60,543 nucleotides of DNA from Kiritimatiellia bacterium (lineage in GTDB: Bacteria > Verrucomicrobiota > Kiritimatiellia > SLAD01): positions 1-60,543 of the forward strand of contig SLBD01000004.1 in NCBI GenBank assembly GCA_007126515.1. The letters run 5' to 3'. How positions within the stretch are numbered: the first letter of the stretch is position 1; every line of letters starts with the position of its first letter. The notes beneath the pieces were generated by a model, which saw nothing but the letters and a program-made list of their open reading frames with translations, made no database searches and was not told where the DNA came from. Below, in pieces: positions 8,484 to 50,372 of this stretch. The translations under genes were made by a program, and so were the position numbers.

Positions 8484-8486
8484 AAA

Positions 8487-8506
8487 CCTGTGCCATCACG
8501 CACAGG
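8487..8506 (-). terminator. hairpin between convergent ptsP and the small Cys-rich gene (weak terminator candidate)
   Basis: CCTGTGC-catcac-GCACAGG, a 7-bp stem. On the minus strand it is followed by only TTTCTATT and lies 18 nt past the stop at 8524. Confidence 0.3.
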
Positions 8507-8523
8507 GCGACACGCTACCATAA

Positions 8524-8727
8524 TCACGCTTCCTTTTTTCGCCGACACGCATCTCCGCCCTGCCCGCCACAAGCGGCACAGCCGATCGGCTCGCCATCCA
8601 TATCACGAGCGGCGCTGCCACACGAACGAAACGTCTTATTGCGAAAGATCAGTCCCACCGCCATACCCAGAAAACAAAGTCCCAGAATGACACCAACCAC
8701 AATCAAATAAGAAAAAAATTGCATCAA
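8524..8727 (-). CDS. small Cys-rich single-pass membrane protein, NqrM(DUF539)-like
   Basis: 67 aa with an N-terminal TM helix followed by ...FRSCGSAARDMDGEPIGCAACGGQGGDACRRKK. The architecture (TM, SCG, C-x2-C, basic tail) resembles NqrM as I recall it. The start abuts the stop of the upstream TVP38 gene with zero gap. Confidence 0.4.
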   Translation of the reverse strand: MMQFFSYLIVVGVILGLCFLGMAVGLIFRNKTFRSCGSAARDMDGEPIGCAACGGQGGDACRRKKEA

Positions 8728-9480
8728 TCACTCCTCCATACCCGATGGCTCTTCCTGCAGCGCCGTCTTAAATTGTGCCAAGCTGGGATGCTTGCGCAGG
8801 CAAAACGGAATTACAAACCAAAGGATTACGAATAATATAACGGATCCGAAGACATACACAAACTGAGTCGTTGGATTTTCTTCCACCACACTGCCTCCCA
8901 GCAACGCAGCAGGAATTCCCGGGGGAATCGATCCCAGCAACGTTCCCAACAAGTACGAGCGATGTTTAATGCGCGTGATCCCCAGAAGCGAATTCGTCAA
9001 AAATCCAGGCATTGGCAAGATCCGCATCAGGATGACGGTGCGATAACTGCGCTCGTGGAAATAATCAGCCACTCGTCCCATTTTGGGCCAGCGCCGAAGA
9101 ATCCAGCCGCGGCCTCCCCAACGCGCATAGCAAAACGGAATGTAACCGCCGAACAACAACGCAACCACACTCCAAGTCAGTCCCCAGAAAAAACCGAAGG
9201 CCAGCCCGCCCACCGGATAAATCAACATGCGCGGGAATCCCATTGCCGTAATCACCGAGGCGCCGACTACAAACGCCAGTATAGCCTTCGAACCTTGTGC
9301 TTCCAAAAATTCGTGGACCTCGCGGGCTTGCGTCAAGATCCCCTTCAGCGGTGAAAAGTATACGATTGCAGCACAAACCAGTAGAGTCATCAGCCAGATC
9401 GTTTCTTTCAAACGAAACCGACGCGTCCGGAAAGGCGCGGTAGCATCAGGAGAGGAATGTAAGCCAGCAGAGTTGTTCAT
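8728..9480 (-). CDS. TVP38/TMEM64 (DedA-related, VTT-domain) family membrane protein
   Basis: Multi-pass membrane protein with the ...YPVGGLAFGFFWGLTWSVVALLFGGYIPFCYARWGG... pattern. The start is set at MNNSAG (ATG complement 9478-9480), because the tracked 320-aa ORF runs antisense through the tRNA gene. Confidence 0.65.
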   Translation of the reverse strand: MNNSAGLHSSPDATAPFRTRRFRLKETIWLMTLLVCAAIVYFSPLKGILTQAREVHEFLEAQGSKAILAFVVGASVITAMGFPRMLIYPVGGLAFGFFWGLTWSVVALLFGGYIPFCYARWGGRGWILRRWPKMGRVADYFHERSYRTVILMRILPMPGFLTNSLLGITRIKHRSYLLGTLLGSIPPGIPAALLGGSVVEENPTTQFVYVFGSVILFVILWFVIPFCLRKHPSLAQFKTALQEEPSGMEE

Positions 9481-9584
9481 TTTGCTTGCCGTGCATAAAA
9501 CCCTATCGCTATCTATAGTGTCGAGGTATAATTTCTGGCAACGGCATTGATCCCTGAAAAGCAGGCATGCTAAATGCAACAGAT

Positions 9585-9661
9585 GCTCCCGTAGCTCAGC
9601 TGGATAGAGCATCGGATTTCTAATCCGACGGTCGCAGGTTCGAATCCTGCCGGGGGCGCCA
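9585..9661 (+). tRNA. tRNA-Arg (anticodon UCU)
   Basis: The cloverleaf was read by hand. Acceptor stem is GCTCCCG/CGGGGGC with a U3-G70 wobble. D arm is TAGCTCAGCTGGATAGAGCA. Anticodon stem is TCGGA/TCCGA with loop TTTCTAA, giving anticodon TCT. T arm is GCAGGTTCGAATCCTGC. CCA is encoded (9659-9661). Length is 77 nt. Confidence 0.93.
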
Positions 9662-22931: not shown

Positions 22932-24710
22932 TTAGTCCCGAATCACATCCTGCAGCGCCAGCATTTCCCGGAACAGCCCCGGGCGTGCCATCAATTCTTG
23001 ATAGGTTCCCACATCGGCAATCCGCCCCTCCTGCATCACCACAATGCGGTCAGCCCGGCGGATCGTTGACAGCCGATGCGCCACAATAAACGTGGTCCGA
23101 TCCCGAATCGCCCGCTCAATCGACTCCTGGATCTTGCGCTCAGAGACCACGTCCAGCGATGATGTCGCCTCGTCCAGAACCAGAATCCGCGGATTCCGGA
23201 TCAAGGCCCGAGCAATGGCAATCCGCTGACGCTGACCGCCCGACAGCAACGCCCCATCCTCGCCGATCCGGGTCTCCACTCCTTCAGGAAGACTCGCAAT
23301 CAATTCCGTCAAATTCGCCGCCGCCAACACGTCTCGCAGCAGCGCATCGGAAACACCTGTCAGACCATAGGCAATATTTTCCCGAATGGTGCCGGAAAAC
23401 AACACAGTTTCTTGAGGCACAACCGAAATAAAGCGGCGCGCCGTCCGCATATCGATCTCCTGCATATCCACCCCATCCAGCAAAATATGCCCCGATTGCG
23501 GACGGCGAAAACCGATCACCAACTGCATCATCGTCGATTTACCTGCCCCGCTGGGGCCCACCAACGCAATGCACTCTCCCGGCGCCACCGCCAAAGAGAA
23601 CTCCTCGACCGCAGCTCCCTTTTCTGCCTGATAAGAAAAGCTGACGTGGTCAAAATCAATTCGTCCCTGCAAAGACTCCAGCGCCATCCGGCCTTGGTTC
23701 ATTTCCAGGTCTGGACATTCCAGCACTTCGCCAATCGATCGAATCGACTCCACGCCCCGCGCCATTTGCGGATAGAAATGCAGCAGTTGCGAAATGCTCA
23801 TCACAATCATGCCGAACAGGCTTTGATACAGCACAATTTCGCCCACCGTAATCCAGCCCTGCAAACAAAACCAACTCATCACCGCCAGGCCAATAATCAT
23901 CGCCAGCTGAAACGAAACAAACGCCGACGCACCAAAGACCGCATTGATCAAATCCAATCGCCGACCGCGCTGATTCACCACACCAAACTGAGTCGAAATT
24001 CGCTGCGATTCGAATTCTTCCAAGCCATGCGCCCGCACCACCGGGATCATATTGATCATCTCCGCCACATCGCCCGACATCCGCTCCACCTCGGAGCGGA
24101 AATCCCGATTCCGTGCGGCCATCCGCCGCCGGAATAGAGTCCGCAATCCCACCACGATCGGCACCATCACCACGAAGAATCCCAACAAACGCGGCTCTCG
24201 CCACGAGGTGATAATCACAGCGAACAAGAACGAGAACAAGGCAAGCACCCCGCCCTCGAACAGGAACATGCAGAAGTTTTGAATTTGCTCCACATCCCGC
24301 AGCACCTTCGCCTGCAACCGTCCCGACTCCATCCGATCATGAAAAGCAATCGACAAATGCTGCATACGCGTCACCAAGGCTGTGCGCAACGTATGCTCCA
24401 AATCCCGCGTCGCCCCGCTCAACATCGAAATCATCAACGTCTGCATTGGCACATTTTGCAGAATCAAAATAAATACCGCGCCGAAATACATCACCATAAG
24501 ACGCAACGGAAACTCCTCCGGCTGCGTCAAGACATCAATCACCTGCGCGACCAGGAATGGAATCGCCCACACCGGCGAGTGCTTGATCAGCAGCACCAGC
24601 ACCAAGCTCACGTAAAACCACCACGGCCGCCCCACCCACTGGATCAGCGTCCGCAACGGGCGATGGCTGTGGTAATCGTATTCTAGAGGTCGAAAGGGTG
24701 TTTGCATCAA
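22932..24710 (-). CDS. ABC exporter, fused permease/ATPase (MsbA/multidrug-type)
   Basis: 592 aa with six N-terminal TM helices. Walker A is GPSGAGKST, the signature is LSGGQRQRIAIARAL and Walker B is ILVLDEATSSLD. Confidence 0.9.
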   Translation of the reverse strand: MMQTPFRPLEYDYHSHRPLRTLIQWVGRPWWFYVSLVLVLLIKHSPVWAIPFLVAQVIDVLTQPEEFPLRLMVMYFGAVFILILQNVPMQTLMISMLSGATRDLEHTLRTALVTRMQHLSIAFHDRMESGRLQAKVLRDVEQIQNFCMFLFEGGVLALFSFLFAVIITSWREPRLLGFFVVMVPIVVGLRTLFRRRMAARNRDFRSEVERMSGDVAEMINMIPVVRAHGLEEFESQRISTQFGVVNQRGRRLDLINAVFGASAFVSFQLAMIIGLAVMSWFCLQGWITVGEIVLYQSLFGMIVMSISQLLHFYPQMARGVESIRSIGEVLECPDLEMNQGRMALESLQGRIDFDHVSFSYQAEKGAAVEEFSLAVAPGECIALVGPSGAGKSTMMQLVIGFRRPQSGHILLDGVDMQEIDMRTARRFISVVPQETVLFSGTIRENIAYGLTGVSDALLRDVLAAANLTELIASLPEGVETRIGEDGALLSGGQRQRIAIARALIRNPRILVLDEATSSLDVVSERKIQESIERAIRDRTTFIVAHRLSTIRRADRIVVMQEGRIADVGTYQELMARPGLFREMLALQDVIRD

Positions 24711-24740: not shown

Positions 24741-24882
24741 TTTCCACTCAATGGAAGAAAAAAAACGCGTTTTTCCACTCAATGGAAACTTTTCCGGCGA
24801 GTTTTCCATTCAATGGAAAAAATCTAGTCGATTTTTCCACTCAATGGAAGTTTTTTGGGCCGATTTTCCATTCAATGGAAAA
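24741..24882 (+). repeat. array of five 31-bp-phased palindromic units (TTTT-CCAYTCAATGG-AAAA)
   Basis: Cores TTCCA[C/T]TCAATGGAA start at 24742, 24773, 24804, 24835 and 24866, so the spacing is exactly 31 bp four times. Spacers are not conserved in sequence. Confidence 0.95.
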
Positions 24883-24975
24883 CGGGCGGCTCATCGGAAA
24901 TTGCAAGATTGTCTTGTCCCTTATTTTGTGCTACGCCCTTTTCTCGTCAATCAACCCACGAAAGGATGAAATGCG

Positions 24976-26289
24976 ATGAGTACCCCCGTGAAATTCAATT
25001 TGCCCGCCGAGGAAATTCCCAAGCAATGGTACAACCTGGCTCCGGATTTTCCCGAACCGATGCCCCCCCCGCTGCATCCCGGCACTCGCGAACCCGCGGC
25101 ACTGAGCGATATGCAGGCCATCTTTCCCGACAATCTGATTGAGCAGGAAGTTTCACAGGAACGCTACATCGATGTCCCCGAAGAAGTCCGGGAAATCTAC
25201 GCCCTCTGGCGCCCCACCCCCTTGATTCGCGCGGTGCGATTGGAGCGCGCGTTGAATACACCGGCACACATCTATTATAAGTACGAAGGTGTGAGCCCAG
25301 CGGGAAGCCACAAACCCAATTCGGCGGTTCCGCAAGCTTATTACAATAAGCAAGCGGGCGTGAAACGCTTGGCCACGGAAACGGGCGCGGGCCAATGGGG
25401 ATCTTCCTTGGCGATGGCCTGTCAGTTGTTTGGGATCGAATGTGTGGTCTACATGGTCCGCGTCAGCTTTAACCAAAAGCCGTACCGCAAACTGATGATG
25501 CAAACTTGGGGGGCGACCGTACATGCCAGCCCCAGCTTGGAAACGGATTTTGGGCGCAAGGTATTGGCGGACGATCCAGACTGCTCCGGCTCCCTTGGCA
25601 TCGCGATCAGCGAGGCAATTGAAGATACGGTAAAAACTCCCAACACAAAGTATGCCTTGGGCAGTGTGTTGAATCATGTTTGCCTACACCAAAGCGTGAT
25701 TGGTCAGGAAACGATCAAGCAGATGGAATTGGCAGGCGAAGAGCCGGATGTGGTGATCGGCTGCGCTGGCGGGGGCAGCAATTTTGCCGGTATGGCGTTC
25801 CCCTTCATCGGTCGCAATCTACGCGAAGGCAAATCGACACGCCTAATCGCCGTCGAACCTGAGTCCTGCCCAACATTGACAGCCGGCGAACTCAAATACG
25901 ATTTTGGCGATACGGCAGAGACGACTCCGTTGTTGATGATGTATTCTCTCGGCCATACCTTCATGCCGCCTAGTATCCACTCCGGAGGATTACGCTATCA
26001 CGGCATGTCTCCGATGGTCAGTCACGCCCGCAAACTGGGGTTGATTGATGCAAAGGCCTATCCGCAGTTGCAGATCTTTGAAGCGGCGGTGCTGTTTGCC
26101 CGAACCGAGGGCCTGGTGCCTGCGCCTGAACCGGCGCACGCCATTCGCGCAGTGATCGACGAAGCCGTTCATGCCCGCGAAACGGGTGAGAAGAAAGTGA
26201 TTCTCTTCAACCTCTGCGGACACGGCATGCTGGATTTAGCCGCCTACGAAACCTACCTGTCCGGCACGATGAAGGAGCAGGAAGACTAA
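24976..26289 (+). CDS. trpB2: TrpB2-type tryptophan synthase beta subunit-like PLP enzyme
   Basis: 437 aa. It has the long N-terminal extension typical of TrpB2 ([15 protein letters not shown]...PPLHP), the PLP-lysine region [15 protein letters not shown] and the GGGSNFAG loop. No trpA is adjacent. Confidence 0.8.
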
Positions 26290-42618: not shown

Positions 42619-42636
42619 TTTTCCATTGAATGGAAA
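42619..42636 (-). repeat. solitary copy of the TTCCATT-N-AATGGAA palindrome between convergent stop codons
   Basis: TTTTCCATTGAATGGAAA is the exact reverse complement of the 7-bp-arm unit of the 24.8-kb array. It sits in the 27-bp gap between stops at 42611-13 (+) and 42641-43 (-). Confidence 0.9.
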
Positions 42637-45482: not shown

Positions 45483-46571
45483 TCAAAATGCAGCTGATAA
45501 GAGAGCGGCCACCTGGTCCGCTCCTCCCCCCGGCAGGGTTTCGGATGGCTCTGGACAGCGCCAGATGGCCTCCAACGCCCCCCGCAGATCTCCTTGGTAC
45601 AATTGTTGGGTCGGCAGATGCTGATATTGAAGGTAGCGCTGAATGGCTGTCTCCAACACCGGGTATTCGCGAAAATCCTCGCGGTCCGCGTAGATCATCG
45701 GCTTCCGATTGGCTACGCATTCCGACACTACACCAAACCCCGGTTTAGTGACGACCACATCAATGCTGGCCAGCACATCTGAAAATGAAATCTGACTACG
45801 ATCTACAGCAAATAAGTTGGCTCCCTCCCACTCCAACGGCTTCACAGTAAAAAACGCATACTCTTGCATCGCTGTCAAATTTGCCACTGCCGCGTCATCC
45901 CATTCCAAGGTGCTAAATGACAGCAGCACCCACGGCAGATCCAGAGGGGCTCCCGTTAATTCTGCCAGTGCTTCGCGCCGCGTTGTTCCCGGAGTTGCCA
46001 GCAGCCCCACCTCTTGTTGCACCGGAAACACCGACATCGGCTCCGCAAACGGCAGGCGGAGCAGCAGATCCGTTTGCGCATAATCTGCAGCAAAGCAATC
46101 CACCACGGTTTGCCAGCGGGGATCCACCGGAACGAATTCCTCGTAGATCCAGCTCCAAGAAAAGTTACCGATGGCATAGCGGGGAATTCCCGCAGCGGCA
46201 GCCGCCGCAATCGGAATGCCGGGAATATCGCAAACAGCCAATCCCACTTCCTCTTTTCGCAAAAACTCCTGCTCACGATTACAGAATTCATCATGCTGAT
46301 CACACAGGTCCAACGCCAATCCTAGCGTTCGATCCACATCCATACGGATCGAATCCAATTGCACCATGCCAATATCCAGCGATCGCGCCACGCGCTTGTA
46401 ATTGAAGTTCGGCATGCGATTACGCAAGAATTCATCGGGCAAATCCGTAACGATCAGCACATCGACATCGGGTCGCAGGGCATGAAACGCCCGCAAGACA
46501 TCGCAGGAGCGTACACCATGTCCGTATCCGTGCGCGGTAATATAATAGGCTAACCTGTTTTTCATGGGCAC
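45483..46571 (-). CDS. GT-B-fold glycosyltransferase-like protein (TIGR00661/MurG-related, function unknown)
   Basis: 362 aa. The N-terminal YYITAHGYGHGVRS motif resembles the GHGxGH motif of the uncharacterised GT28-related family. It stops 13 nt before the gcvP start. Confidence 0.5.
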   Translation of the reverse strand: MPMKNRLAYYITAHGYGHGVRSCDVLRAFHALRPDVDVLIVTDLPDEFLRNRMPNFNYKRVARSLDIGMVQLDSIRMDVDRTLGLALDLCDQHDEFCNREQEFLRKEEVGLAVCDIPGIPIAAAAAAGIPRYAIGNFSWSWIYEEFVPVDPRWQTVVDCFAADYAQTDLLLRLPFAEPMSVFPVQQEVGLLATPGTTRREALAELTGAPLDLPWVLLSFSTLEWDDAAVANLTAMQEYAFFTVKPLEWEGANLFAVDRSQISFSDVLASIDVVVTKPGFGVVSECVANRKPMIYADREDFREYPVLETAIQRYLQYQHLPTQQLYQGDLRGALEAIWRCPEPSETLPGGGADQVAALLSAAF

Positions 46572-46686
46572 GCACCATACCTTTCCCGCAGTGACCGGTA
46601 AAGTTGAACCTATCGAGAGCGTCCCCCCGGATCAAAGATGCACTTCATCGCCACTCCTTATCAAACCTCTCCTTCACTCCTACACT

Positions 46687-46722
46687 CACAGGTCCCACAC
46701 TTCGATAAGTGTGGGACCTGTG
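46687..46722. promoter_or_regulatory. 16-bp perfect inverted repeat with 4-nt loop (operator or RNA hairpin candidate)
   Basis: CACAGGTCCCACACTT-cgat-AAGTGTGGGACCTGTG, read directly. There is no T/U run on either side. It lies in the divergent region between the GT-like gene (start 46571) and purE (start 46810). Confidence 0.75.
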
Positions 46723-46809
46723 GTTCGACCCGATTGACAGACATCCAGGTGCATGACATTCTCCCCGTCATTCGCAGTAGCCACACAATTCATTGTCGTA
46801 AAGGACATC

Positions 46810-48446: not shown

Positions 48447-48721
48447 CCGTCAAACACAACGCGCCCGTTGTTCTTGCATTAACCGTTCCGAAATCCAGAG
48501 CTTGATCAGAGATTGACGACTCACGCCGATCATCTTGGAGAAACGCTTCTGAGGATCGAATTCAAAACACATAATGGTATAATAGCTATACCGTTTCGGG
48601 TGTCAAACACCGCTCTGGGGCAAACAGCAATTCTCATTATGACATACGATTCCTGCTCACAACCCGCCCTCGCCGCCCGCAATCGATTGACAAATTGAGC
48701 GAGCGGTGACAGCTTATTATT

Positions 48722-48922
48722 ATGACTACTGTAAAGGAAATAGAAGCTGCTGTGGAGCGCCTATCCGCTCCCAGTCTGGATGAGTTTCGCACGTGGTTTG
48801 CGGAATTTGATGCGGCGTCATGGGATCGCGAGTTTGAACAGGATGCAATCCAAGGAGCTCTGGATGGACTTGCCGATGAGGCGCTTCGTGATTTGGATAA
48901 CGGGCGCTGTACCAAACTATGA
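48722..48922 (+). CDS. putative type II antitoxin (partner of the downstream RelE/ParE-like toxin)
   Basis: 66-aa acidic protein with a 4-nt ATGA overlap with the toxin gene. Its size and order are typical of type II TA modules. The family is not assigned. Confidence 0.5.
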   Translation: MTTVKEIEAAVERLSAPSLDEFRTWFAEFDAASWDREFEQDAIQGALDGLADEALRDLDNGRCTKL

Positions 48923-49179
48923 ATCATTTGGCGCACCCTCGGTTCTGGGATCGATATCACAAATTACCAGAACATGTGCGGTCACTGGCTGATCAGAACT
49001 TTGACCTGTTGAAAGTAAACCCTCGCCATCCTTCGCTGCATCTGAAGAAAGTTGGGCGGCATTGGTCAGTTCGTGTTGGGATACACTACCGCGCCCTCGG
49101 CGTTGACTATCCAGAGGGAATTCTGTGGTACTGGATCGGAACCCACTCCGAATACGATCGCCTAACGAAGTACATCTAG
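48919..49179 (+). CDS. RelE/ParE-superfamily type II toxin
   Basis: 86 aa. The pattern F-W-x-x-Y-x-x-L-P...NPRHPSLHLKKV...WSVRVGIHYRALG...WYWIGTHSEYDRL matches a common RelE/ParE-like toxin family as I recall it. Confidence 0.6.
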   Translation: MNHLAHPRFWDRYHKLPEHVRSLADQNFDLLKVNPRHPSLHLKKVGRHWSVRVGIHYRALGVDYPEGILWYWIGTHSEYDRLTKYI

Positions 49180-49239
49180 CGACTCATCCTGATTGCGAGC
49201 TGGATTTATTCTCGCGGAGACGGTATAGCTGCTTTCTGA

Positions 49240-49350
49240 TTTTCCACTCAATGGAAATAAAATCGGGACTTTTTCCACTCAATGGAAACTTTTTGGCCCT
49301 TTTTTCCACTCAATGGAAAATTTTGAGACGAATTTTCCACTCAATGGAAA
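49240..49350 (+). repeat. array of four 31-bp-phased palindromic units (same family as 24741-24882) abutting the pheS start
   Basis: Cores TTCCACTCAATGGAA start at 49242, 49273, 49304 and 49335, so the spacing is exactly 31 bp three times. All have the same orientation and the same CTCAA centre. Confidence 0.95.
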
Positions 49351-49352
49351 CA

Positions 49353-50372
49353 ATGATTATGGAACAAATTGAGACAACGAAAACGGCCGCGCTGGATGCC
49401 ATCGCGAACGCAAATGGCCTGGATGAGCTGGATGCCGTACGGGTGCAGTACATGGGACGCAAGGGTCTGATTCCGGACCTGATGAAGCATCTCAAAACGA
49501 TCCCGAACGAAGAAAAACGCGCCTACGGACAACGCGTCAATGATCTCAAGACGGCGTTTCAAGAAGCGCTCGATGCCCGCAAACAGGAATTGGAAGCAGC
49601 GGCGGAAGAAACAGTGACGGCGGCATTCGACCTCACGTTGCCAGGCGAATGGCGAGGCGTGGGATCGAAACATCCGATCACGCAATTGACCGAGCGAGCA
49701 ATTCGCATCTTCCAGACGTTAGGCTTCACGGTTGCCGACGGTCCGGACATTGAAACGGTGTTCAACAATTTCGATGCGCTCAACCATCCGCCGGGACATC
49801 CAGCTCGCGATGTCAAAGATACGTTCTATCTGGACGATCCCGACACACTGCTGCGTACACACACGTCGCCAGTCCAAGTTCGCTATATGTTGTCGCATCC
49901 CCCACCGATTCGAATTATCGCACCGGGGCGCTGCTATCGTCGTGACACGCCGGACGCAACGCATAGCGCTAACTTCCATCAGATCGAAGGCTTGTATGTG
50001 GCGGAGAAGGTGTCGCTGGCGGATTTGAAAGGCGACTTGTCGCACTTCGCTCGCGAGGCGATGGGGCCCAATACGAAAGTACGGTTCCGCCCTCACTTTT
50101 TCCCCTTCACGGAACCCAGCGTCGAAGTCGATTTCTCCTGCCACGTCTGCGGAGGCAAAGGCTGCCGCGTCTGCAAGAACAGTGGCTGGATCGAAATTGC
50201 CGGGGCCGGCATGGTTGATCCGAACGTGTTCAAAGCCGTCGGCTACGATCCGGATAAGGTGACTGGGTACGCGTTCGGGATGGGCATTGAGCGGATTGCG
50301 ATGATCTTGTTTGGGATCACAGATATTCGCCACCTGTACGAAAACGATGCGCGGTATCTGGCGCAGTTTTAG
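49353..50372 (+). CDS. pheS: phenylalanine-tRNA ligase alpha subunit
   Basis: Class II motifs are present (FRPHFFPFTEPSVEVD, GAGMVDPNV, GYAFGMGIERIAMI). Start candidates are 49344 (inside the last repeat), 49353 and 49359. The tracked ORF start at 49125 only translates the repeat array. Confidence 0.9.
   Translation: MIMEQIETTKTAALDAIANANGLDELDAVRVQYMGRKGLIPDLMKHLKTIPNEEKRAYGQRVNDLKTAFQEALDARKQELEAAAEETVTAAFDLTLPGEWRGVGSKHPITQLTERAIRIFQTLGFTVADGPDIETVFNNFDALNHPPGHPARDVKDTFYLDDPDTLLRTHTSPVQVRYMLSHPPPIRIIAPGRCYRRDTPDATHSANFHQIEGLYVAEKVSLADLKGDLSHFAREAMGPNTKVRFRPHFFPFTEPSVEVDFSCHVCGGKGCRVCKNSGWIEIAGAGMVDPNVFKAVGYDPDKVTGYAFGMGIERIAMILFGITDIRHLYENDARYLAQF

Follow-up and report, generated by a model that had tools for sequence, protein, structure and literature searches.

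Helically phased arrays of a TTCCA-N5-TGGAA dyad, putative protein-binding sites, in Kiritimatiellia and a group of tailed phages

Phased dyads in the window and in related genomes

We analysed a 60,543-nt stretch of the Kiritimatiellia bacterium contig SLBD01000004.1 (hereafter, the window; coordinates without a locus label refer to it), in which a short palindromic element, a dyad of the half-sites TTCCA and TGGAA separated by 5 bp, occurs in two tandem arrays and one solitary copy (Table 1). Array 1 lies in the 265-bp gap between a TrpB2-type PALP enzyme gene, with its ATG at 24976 on the plus strand, and a divergent ABC exporter gene, whose open reading frame (ORF) starts at 24710 on the minus strand; it is 95 nt from the former start and 31 nt from the latter. 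Its five TTCCAYTCAATGGAA cores are spaced by exactly 31 bp, units 3 and 5 being perfect 7-1-7 palindromes and units 1, 2 and 4 having C at position 6. Tandem Repeats Finder, which is independent of the core search, also returned a period of 31 with 4.6 copies at 24741-24882. Array 2, with four cores of the same period and orientation, precedes pheS, and the solitary core falls within the 27 bp that separate the 3' ends of two convergent genes, a DUF2867/NAD-binding gene and gcvP. An earlier reading of the same DNA (hereafter, the original prediction) had reported the cores of array 1, their exact spacing, the divergent gap and a sister array before pheS, and it had named the genes for the TrpB2-type enzyme, the ABC exporter and PheS; all of these calls were correct.

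The core pattern matched the window 10 times against 0.62 expected, and none of 100 dinucleotide-preserving shuffles reached 10. When the gap between the half-sites was varied (TTCCA-Nk-TGGAA, k from 0 to 12), ten occurrences were found at k=5 and none at any other k. All ten cores are intergenic, both of their half-sites are perfect, and degenerate copies are absent. The pattern is far above chance.

Homologues of PheS and TrpB2, including those of Kiritimatiellae metagenome-assembled genomes (MAGs), Pontiella agarivorans and strain S94, put the window in Kiritimatiellia, within the PVC group. Loci fetched for comparison are labelled L###. A first genome scan, with one genome per species and two cores of the window variant (centre AYTSAAT) at a free gap of 5-35 bp, detected six loci, all of them in Kiritimatiellia MAGs of 62-71% GC, and a metagenome scan with the same variant added one locus at 44% GC with a period of 31. 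The 15-bp core has thus survived large shifts in base composition. The AYTSAAT-centred genome and metagenome scans missed a broader family, and a pattern with any centre was run on viral contigs (gap 5-35 bp, that is, centre distances of 20-50 bp), which gave 71 loci. In total, at least 10 related genomes, of 44-71% GC, and a group of tailed phages were found to have the dyad, either singly or in arrays of 2 to about 11. Twelve host loci had TTCCA-Nk-TGGAA at k=5 only, with 3-10 copies each, against 0.03-0.12 expected. The 21-kb locus of S94 has 5 exact dyads and that of P. agarivorans has 8, against 0.06-0.11 expected, and other gap lengths gave one occurrence in one of the two loci and otherwise none. 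In these Pontiella-type genomes, the dyad is found about every 3-4 kb with a free centre, at 16-18 nt before likely starts (pheS and an FG-GAP gene), at 53-61 nt before exbB and within genes. One of the matches lies in PheS itself, where the motif FHQ(I/V)E is encoded by TTCCATCAGGTGGAA, an exact dyad (10616-10630 in L094 and L095); the window counterpart at 49974-49988, TTCCATCAGATCGAA, has one mismatch to the dyad. This match is a coding coincidence, which genome-wide dyad counts should leave out. No dyad and no alternative phased repeat was found in four relatives (L015, L018, L019 and L020; 76 kb in total). Some Kiritimatiellia lineages therefore have the system and others lack it.

The half-sites, the 5-bp gap and a T-run in front are invariant across loci. 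The centre is set by lineage: positions 6 and 10 are T.A in the window and the goat-rumen MAG (L004), A.T in L012/L013/L017 and C.G in L092/L093, with both halves changing together. The original prediction had described a compositional rule for the spacer, which held in 23 units from five genomes (positions 16-22 AT-rich, 23-27 GC-rich and 28-31 T-rich). These AT-rich and GC-rich blocks are in step with the helix. Units run head-to-tail within arrays, and their orientation relative to the flanking genes is mixed (sense at pheS, L003 and L036; antisense at L017, L006 and L004).

Several variants of the unit were observed in individual genomes. In the MAGs of 66-71% GC (L006 5841-5960 and L001 3695-3760), ACRTGTTTC follows the core and forms with its GAA a second palindrome, GAAACATGTTTC, whose centre is 10.5 bp away from that of the core; some of these units are palindromic over their full 31 nt (AAACAyGT-core-ACrTGTTT). 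At L003 (1747-1860), the 21-bp array has no stop in the frame of the periplasmic-binding-protein gene downstream and would read as the repeat MELFFHS, and the ATG in the terminal core is the most likely start codon because a signal peptide directly follows. Two kinds of repeat were set aside as probably unrelated, one at 30% GC with a 38-bp period (L009) and AT-rich identical-unit repeats of 33, 43 and 49 bp in giant viruses.

The spacing between sites falls into classes of 21-22, 30-32 and 41-42 bp, corresponding to 2, 3 and 4 helical turns. Among host arrays, the distance is 31 bp in the window, L012, L013, L017 and L007, 31/32 bp in L001, L002, L004 and L006, exactly 21 bp in L003 (21 x 4) and L005, and 22/30/22 bp in L092 and L093. 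In the viral contigs, distances cluster at 21-22, 30-33 and 41-43 bp; 51 of 77 de-duplicated core distances were within 1 bp of 21, 31.5 or 42 (null 32%, p about 1e-9). The classes are also mixed within single phage arrays, such as those with 31, 31, 22, 31, 31, 31 (L036), 31, 31, 41 (L073) and, over about eleven sites, 31, 22, 32, 31, 31 ... 42, 31 (L035). Protein-protein contacts on the same face of double-stranded DNA would predict whole-turn steps of this kind within one array, and neither the copying of a fixed unit nor a function in RNA readily accounts for such steps. The argument from helical phase, made in the original prediction for a single spacing, was strongly reinforced by these related arrays.

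Conservation at pheS and within a YfhO-like gene

Comparison with relatives fixed the pheS start codon, so that the last core of array 2 ends 9 nt before it. Two extra in-frame ATGs precede this start, at 49344 (within the last core) and at 49353. A site or array at the pheS start was kept in four lineages (the window, L012, L013 and S94/Pontiella [L094, L095]). The PheS proteins are 65-85% identical between lineages: those of the window, L012 and L013 are 83-85% identical mutually and roughly equidistant, and those of S94 and P. agarivorans are 65-70% identical to them. L012 has three cores before pheS and L013 has six, both of the form TTCCAATCGTTGGAA and spaced by exactly 31 bp, with the last core 7 nt from the ATG; S94 and P. 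agarivorans have one core each, TTCCAATGGCTGGAA, 16 nt before the ATG. The site is old, with a copy number of 1-6, because it was kept in all four. The genes upstream differ, with a ParE-like toxin in the window, a divergent glycosyltransferase in L012 and an outer-membrane barrel followed by a canonical terminator in L013. No site was found at pheS in L015, where pheS and pheT are adjacent.

A TATAGC hexamer precedes array 2, and it has counterparts at the other loci (TATAGC in L013, TATACC in L012, TAGACC in S94 and TAGAGC in Pontiella), 6-20 nt before the first core. If this hexamer is a -10-like element, array 2 could possibly lie just downstream of the transcription start. At array 1, a promoter-like TTGACG-16-CAAAAT on the minus strand (24950..24923) would transcribe through the array toward the ABC exporter gene.

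Table 1 Features of the window that bear on the dyad arrays
Feature	Coordinates	Strand	Remarks
ABC exporter gene (ABC_membrane + ABC_tran)	22932..24710	-	divergent from trpB2
Array 1	24741..24882	+	five 31-bp units: T-run, core TTCCAYTCAATGGAA, R + W-run, GC-rich block, T-run
Array 1 cores	24742-24756, 24773-24787, 24804-24818, 24835-24849, 24866-24880	+	core match
TrpB2-type PALP enzyme gene	24976..26289	+	right of array 1
Solitary core	42621..42635		TTCCATTGAATGGAA, perfect palindrome with TTT/A flanks; 27-bp gap between convergent 3' ends
ParE-like toxin ORF	48919..49179	+	directly upstream of array 2; upstream neighbour in this genome only
TATAGC hexamer	49224..49229	+	12 nt upstream of array 2; possible -10-like element
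Array 2	49239..49349	+	four 31-bp units, cores TTCCACTCAATGGAA at 49242-49256, 49273-49287, 49304-49318, 49335-49349
pheS (phenylalanyl-tRNA synthetase alpha)	49359..50372	+	start MEQ..., conserved in relatives

Two further stretches of the window were recorded. No antitoxin ORF was identified beside the ParE-like toxin ORF, and the 472 bp preceding it (48447-48918) are unannotated. The 1.1 kb before tRNA-Arg (9585-9661), at 8484-9584, has no convincing ORF and no Rfam match at the gathering threshold.

The original prediction had offered tandem hairpins or iterated attenuators as one reading; more broadly, AU-rich hairpins might attenuate transcription, sequester the pheS GGAA or stabilise mRNA at operon boundaries, like the REP (repetitive extragenic palindromic) hairpins of E. 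coli. At pheS, the array takes up the space from a probable promoter to the ATG, and the GGAA in the 3' arm of its last core is the only Shine-Dalgarno-like sequence before the gene. Several single sites are 16-18 nt before start codons, phage arrays follow the major head gene in the classic position of a stabilising or terminating hairpin, positions 6 and 10 co-vary like a base pair, and the predicted fold of array 1 is more stable than those of shuffled sequences (z = -4.4 for the plus strand, -6.2 for the minus strand). However, the predicted folds are nested pairings between units, as expected of any repeated palindrome, rather than tandem hairpins, and the pheS leader is not significantly structured (z = -1.67). 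Hairpins have no reason to stand at integer turns of the DNA helix, the orientation of units relative to transcription is mixed, 7 of the 10 window cores have a C.A mismatch at pair 6/10 in the sense strand, and in many phage cores the stem is reduced to 5 bp, two of them G-C pairs. No terminator-like site was detected, the gene preceding the L013 array already has a canonical terminator of its own, and Rfam gave no match at gathering or permissive thresholds. We consider an element acting as RNA to be quite improbable.

The original prediction had also tied both arrays to aromatic amino-acid genes. The two halves of the comparison of orthologous regions came out differently: the pheS site was retained in four lineages, and the array was absent from four trpB2 orthologous loci (80-88% identity). 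Within the window, trpS/tyrS-like and pheA genes have no array, and arrays elsewhere adjoin unrelated genes (lipid A acyltransferase, STAS protein, ThiD, periplasmic binding protein, epimerase, thioesterase, FGE-sulfatase and pullulanase). The link with aromatic amino-acid genes is coincidental, and an aromatic amino-acid regulon was rejected in view of the array-less trpB2 orthologues, the trpS/tyrS-like and pheA genes and the unrelated neighbours. A T-box-like specifier, with UUC/UGG codon or GAA/CCA anticodon triplets in the arms UUCCA/UGGAA, was dropped on the same evidence. A Phe/Trp-rich leader peptide was also rejected; the frame through array 2 has four Phe in 36 codons and no codon runs.

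A second conserved position was found inside a gene. At L004, a 96-bp array (3 x 32 bp, with the phased cores at 2552-2630) lies within a continuous 880-codon frame. Homologues of 810-860 residues show that this frame is one YfhO-like membrane-protein gene. The 32 array residues are missing from its two nearest homologues (about 65% identity). Distant homologues from other genera (48-50% identity) have FHxVEK, FPQRGK (FPxxGK) and STxWK at the same variable loop, and these peptides are TTCCAC...GTGGAA translated in three frames. A check of the DNA revealed five cores in L092 (11474-11592) and four in L093 (11477-11565), within the coding region and spaced 22/30/22, and translated cores in all three frames were present in five further homologues beyond L004, L092 and L093. 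Since one nucleotide motif recurs in all three frames, it is the nucleic acid that is constrained, not the peptide. The intragenic array has thus stayed at one position through deep divergence, with perfect cores of each lineage's own variant.

These two positions bear directly on whether the dyad is a selfish element, which the original prediction had listed as a REP-like possibility. A REP-like or miniature mobile palindrome would spread through intergenic DNA and permissive gene loops and expand in tandem, with no function for the host. Each genome has one centre variant (ten cores in the window, fourteen in L012/L013/L017), and presence varies, the trpB2 array being absent in four relatives and the YfhO-like array in its two nearest homologues. 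Arrays occur in every kind of position, including between convergent 3' ends and in frame within a gene, and the near-identical spacers of L006 and L004 point to recent duplication. Short-read assemblies break at the array: two independent ones (Logan contigs L010 and L011, with an identical TrpB2 gene) stop 237-238 nt upstream of TrpB2, precisely where the array lies (about 24739 in the window). This fragmentation is also a practical warning for anyone assembling such genomes. Against a selfish origin, genomes of 44-71% GC, Pontiella isolates and phages all have identical half-sites, whereas a REP family is typically confined to one species. Units are head-to-tail and not alternating, the 5' GTAG of REPs is lacking, and the mixture of 21-22, 30-32 and 41-42 bp in one array is unexplained by duplication of a fixed unit. 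The pheS site stands at the same position in four lineages, and neutral decay would not give perfect, lineage-specific cores within an array shared by 48%-identical proteins. No transposase was found among the annotated neighbours in the fetched loci, although no search aimed at RAYTs (REP-associated tyrosine transposases) was made. Retention of both sites at orthologous positions, together with the selection on half-sites and phase described below for phages, weakens the selfish reading, and we regard it as unlikely.

Sites in tailed phages and resemblance to DnaA boxes

Array-bearing contigs L025, L031/L062, L035, L036, L038 and L073 belong to one tailed-phage group that encodes a major head protein, maturation protease, portal and head-tail adaptor. 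Their arrays are located at transcription-unit boundaries, upstream of genes for a DUF5681 protein and the large terminase (TerL) in L035 and L036, and just after the major head gene in L062, L038 and L025. In a separate phage (L088), the array begins 2 nt after an ORF resembling the small terminase (TerS). The layout of the phage unit is the same as the host's, with a T-run, the dyad, A and a GC-rich mid-spacer. The phage arrays are more degenerate than the window copies, and many of their cores have non-palindromic centres, such as TTCCAATGCCTGGAA, which leave a potential stem of 5 bp with two G-C pairs. When the arrays of L035 and L036 (TerL 82% identical) were aligned, TTyTTCCAA and GGAA were invariant while centres and spacers differed, which indicates selection on the half-sites and their phase. 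An all-against-all ORF comparison for a binder common to phage and host loci returned only phage structural proteins and artefacts of array translation.

Another block in the same two phages was observed between the array and the DUF5681/terminase genes. This block of about 60 bp, GACGnATCGACTGACTGGAACGnTGGAGTCA...GTTTCAGAATGTTTCAC (L035 3440-3500 and L036 3060-3125), is almost identical between them though their arrays have drifted, and is a candidate for the true pac/cos site or for a late promoter.

The proximity to terminase genes raises the question of a packaging or uptake signal, in which the dyad would be read by the phage small terminase (pac-like) or by an uptake or transfer machine, the host copies being mimics, decoys or self-markers. 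Wherever terS could be located, arrays were within about 350 bp of it (L035, L036 and L088), and the Pontiella-type density of about one site per 3-4 kb, genes included, is like that of uptake signals. Yet the same phage group has arrays after the major head gene or between convergent genes, away from terS, and the host arrays have no linked terminase or competence gene, those of the window being chromosomal with no phage genes nearby. Strict retention beside the pheS start codon would be unexpected, and ring-shaped terminase oligomers would presumably favour direct repeats over dyads. A packaging or uptake role is in our view very unlikely.

A cluster of DnaA boxes was another proposal of the original prediction; it would be either an origin or a datA-like titration site, with each core half and its T-run forming one box. 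The likeness on which it was based is accurate, TTTTCCACT matching the E. coli DnaA box TTATCCACA at 7 of 9 positions, and the same sequence matches the relaxed consensus TTWTNCACA at 8 of 9. In L092 and L093, the halves are perfect boxes (TTTTCCACA) placed head to head, and in the window the cumulative GC-skew minimum is near 46-49 kb, at a switch in gene orientation. However, perfect boxes are found in L092/L093 only. In the window, no unit has an exact TTWTNCACA match and 7 of the 9 array units are one mismatch off (TTTTCCACT), and the orthologous arrays read TTTTCCAAT. CACA is critical in the DnaA box, and the equivalent positions vary by lineage, positions 8-9 reading CT, TT, AT, AC, AG or CA; the conserved part is the TTCCA/TGGAA dyad, and DnaA boxes do not have such symmetry about a 5-bp centre. 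The window contains 2 canonical boxes against 2.9 expected, which is no enrichment. The two arrays are 24.5 kb apart and others are intragenic, separate convergent genes or lie in the late regions of phages, no origin-like strand switch was detected at the L012 and L013 pheS loci, and neither dnaA nor dnaN is nearby. We hold a DnaA-box cluster to be highly improbable, and automated searches for such clusters would flag these arrays falsely.

Several features possibly related to replication were also observed. Gene orientation in the window changes from mostly minus to all plus at about 46.6 kb (46572-46752), a near-parS sequence with 2 mismatches (TGTTGCACCGGAAACA) is at 46015-46030, and scpA, scpB and an SMC-like gene are present in the window; no canonical parS was found near the arrays. 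The region at about 46-49 kb may be near the replication origin, with no dnaA or dnaN present. In other viral contigs (L063 13144-13240, L023 4928-5089, L041, L045, L054 and L085), arrays of TTCCACA-N-TGTGGAA consist of head-to-head pairs resembling DnaA boxes at spacings of 20, 30, 45 and 49-50 bp. They may constitute a distinct family related to origins, with the outer dyad in common.

A putative binding system and its likeness to known ones

Considering the phasing, the dyad symmetry and the conservation, we judge it somewhat better than an even chance that the arrays are helically phased sites on double-stranded DNA for a putative dimeric protein that oligomerises along one face. In such a system, the two subunits of a symmetric dimer would contact TTCCA and TGGAA, respectively, through consecutive major grooves spaced by 10 bp, and neighbouring dimers would touch along one face of the helix. 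Sites 2, 3 or 4 turns apart would be allowed, with three turns (31 bp) as the preferred packing, and the T-runs and GC-rich block alternating with the helix would favour bending or wrapping of the DNA round the protein oligomer. At pheS, where the site or array follows a probable promoter and precedes the start codon, an occupied array would cover the transcription start or the DNA just beyond it and could act as a cooperative repressor or roadblock, with the copy number (1 to 6) setting the steepness of the response. Phages of Kiritimatiellia hosts would use the same sites. The putative binder would behave more as a global regulator or nucleoid-associated protein than as a pathway-specific repressor, because the dyad occurs every 3-4 kb, at operon boundaries, within genes and in phage late regions.

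The proposal of a cooperative operator array for a dimeric regulator, which opened the list of the original prediction, is favoured by the phasing, the dyad and the conservation. Several observations weigh against phased binding sites of this kind. No regulator gene was found in the window or adjoining any array, and tblastn with E. coli Lrp and AsnC found no Lrp/AsnC homologue in the window or the 95 fetched loci. The trpB2 array is missing from all four of the orthologous loci examined. Near-identical, all-or-none sites without a gradient of weaker ones, as in the window, are unusual for transcription-factor regulons, and the shared centre within a genome could reflect copy-and-paste spread instead of selection. 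Several arrays between convergent 3' ends or inside genes offer no obvious target for a classical operator. A sigma-70 consensus scan at pheS detected no promoter, and the inferred promoter position there depends on a weakly conserved hexamer. The AT/GC profile of the spacer has a 10.3-bp harmonic, which is not the dominant one.

A bolder version of the phased-site reading, which we think unlikely and offer as speculation, is a genome punctuation shared by Kiritimatiellia and their phages. A lineage-specific protein would polymerise in whole-turn steps, the host arrays would mark or insulate transcription units, including the sites in coding regions, and the phage arrays beside terminase and head genes would recruit or compete for the host factor, with positions 6 and 10 varying along with the protein from lineage to lineage and serving as a phage-host specificity code.

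Known elements and motifs were also considered as candidates for the unit and rejected. A promoter within the unit (sigma-70, sigma-54 or extracytoplasmic function [ECF]) does not fit, since the hexamer spacings are wrong when compared by hand, and scans found nothing. None of the motifs of IHF, Fis, CodY, the Fur family and parS/NBS agrees in both sequence and half-site spacing. The arrays do not have the form of a CRISPR, with a conserved repeat of 15-21 bp and spacers of 6-17 bp that share a composition pattern, and no cas genes are in the window.

Kiritimatiellia are environmentally important degraders of sulfated polysaccharides in sediments and guts and are genetically almost unstudied; to our knowledge, neither a motif for a transcription factor nor a site for a nucleoid protein has been reported from the class. 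The dyad is among the most over-represented signals in these genomes (>50-fold above expectation), and it is conserved beside the essential gene pheS in four lineages, kept within a coding region in three frames and common to host phages. The motif could be used directly as bait for a probably global DNA-binding protein from cultured Pontiella strains, and possibly as a marker linking uncultured phages to their hosts.

The original prediction had called the architecture undescribed, and this stands as far as a full-text string search can show: core variants retrieved nothing relevant from the literature, and a literature search on Kiritimatiellae promoter motifs retrieved nothing. We could find no described counterpart that has near-perfect sites, arrays of up to about 11, intragenic arrays, one site per 3-4 kb and sharing with phages.

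REP and BIME (bacterial interspersed mosaic element) sequences of Enterobacteria are likewise short, dispersed extragenic palindromes that are often clustered, often at gene 3' ends and homogeneous within a genome, and REPs can bind nucleoid proteins. They differ in being species-specific, with a 5' GTAG, alternating orientation, a tie to RAYTs and no helical phasing, whereas the dyad described here has head-to-tail units and is conserved across a bacterial class and its phages.

Closer likenesses in geometry are found among regulators that bind phased boxes. Lrp-like dimers occupy clusters of sites on one face of the helix, 2 or 3 turns from each other, with the DNA wrapped (PMC2995911), and Ss-LrpB of Sulfolobus solfataricus binds three regularly spaced 15-bp boxes, TTGCAAAATTTGCAA (PMC1802622). 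The latter are 15-bp dyads of the same 5-5-5 layout, TTGCA-AAATT-TGCAA against TTCCA-N5-TGGAA, with one base different per half-site, and the Lrp/AsnC spacing of 2 or 3 turns on one face corresponds to the 21-22 and 30-32 bp found here. The cooperative dimers of Lrp/AsnC systems wrap DNA, and these proteins are global or nucleoid-associated regulators with many genomic sites, often autoregulated and encoded close to a site. In contrast, Lrp targets are degenerate semi-palindromes while the ten window cores are perfect in their half-sites, and the arrays here extend to about 11 sites, include 4-turn spacing, lie inside genes and between convergent genes, and are common to phages.

NrdR binds 16-bp boxes with linkers of 15-16 bp, tolerating one extra turn but needing integer turns (PMC12051234). 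Its palindromic boxes of about 16 bp, set 15-16 bp apart, are three turns from centre to centre, as in the 31-bp arrays. NrdR sites are however paired and restricted to nrd promoters, no nrd gene adjoins the arrays, and the core is unrelated in sequence to the NrdR consensus (acaCwAtATaTwGtgt). ComK recognises AAAA-N5-TTTT boxes with spacers of 8, 18 or 31 bp (PMC3536758), that is, an N5-centred dyad with boxes 21, 31 or 44 bp apart from centre to centre, in three spacing classes as here; it differs in its sequence, in using two boxes and not up to eleven, and in being a competence activator restricted to Bacillales. The sequence of the dyad matches none of the three, and we do not claim membership in any of these families; by analogy, the arrays resemble the sites of Lrp, NrdR and ComK in their geometry.

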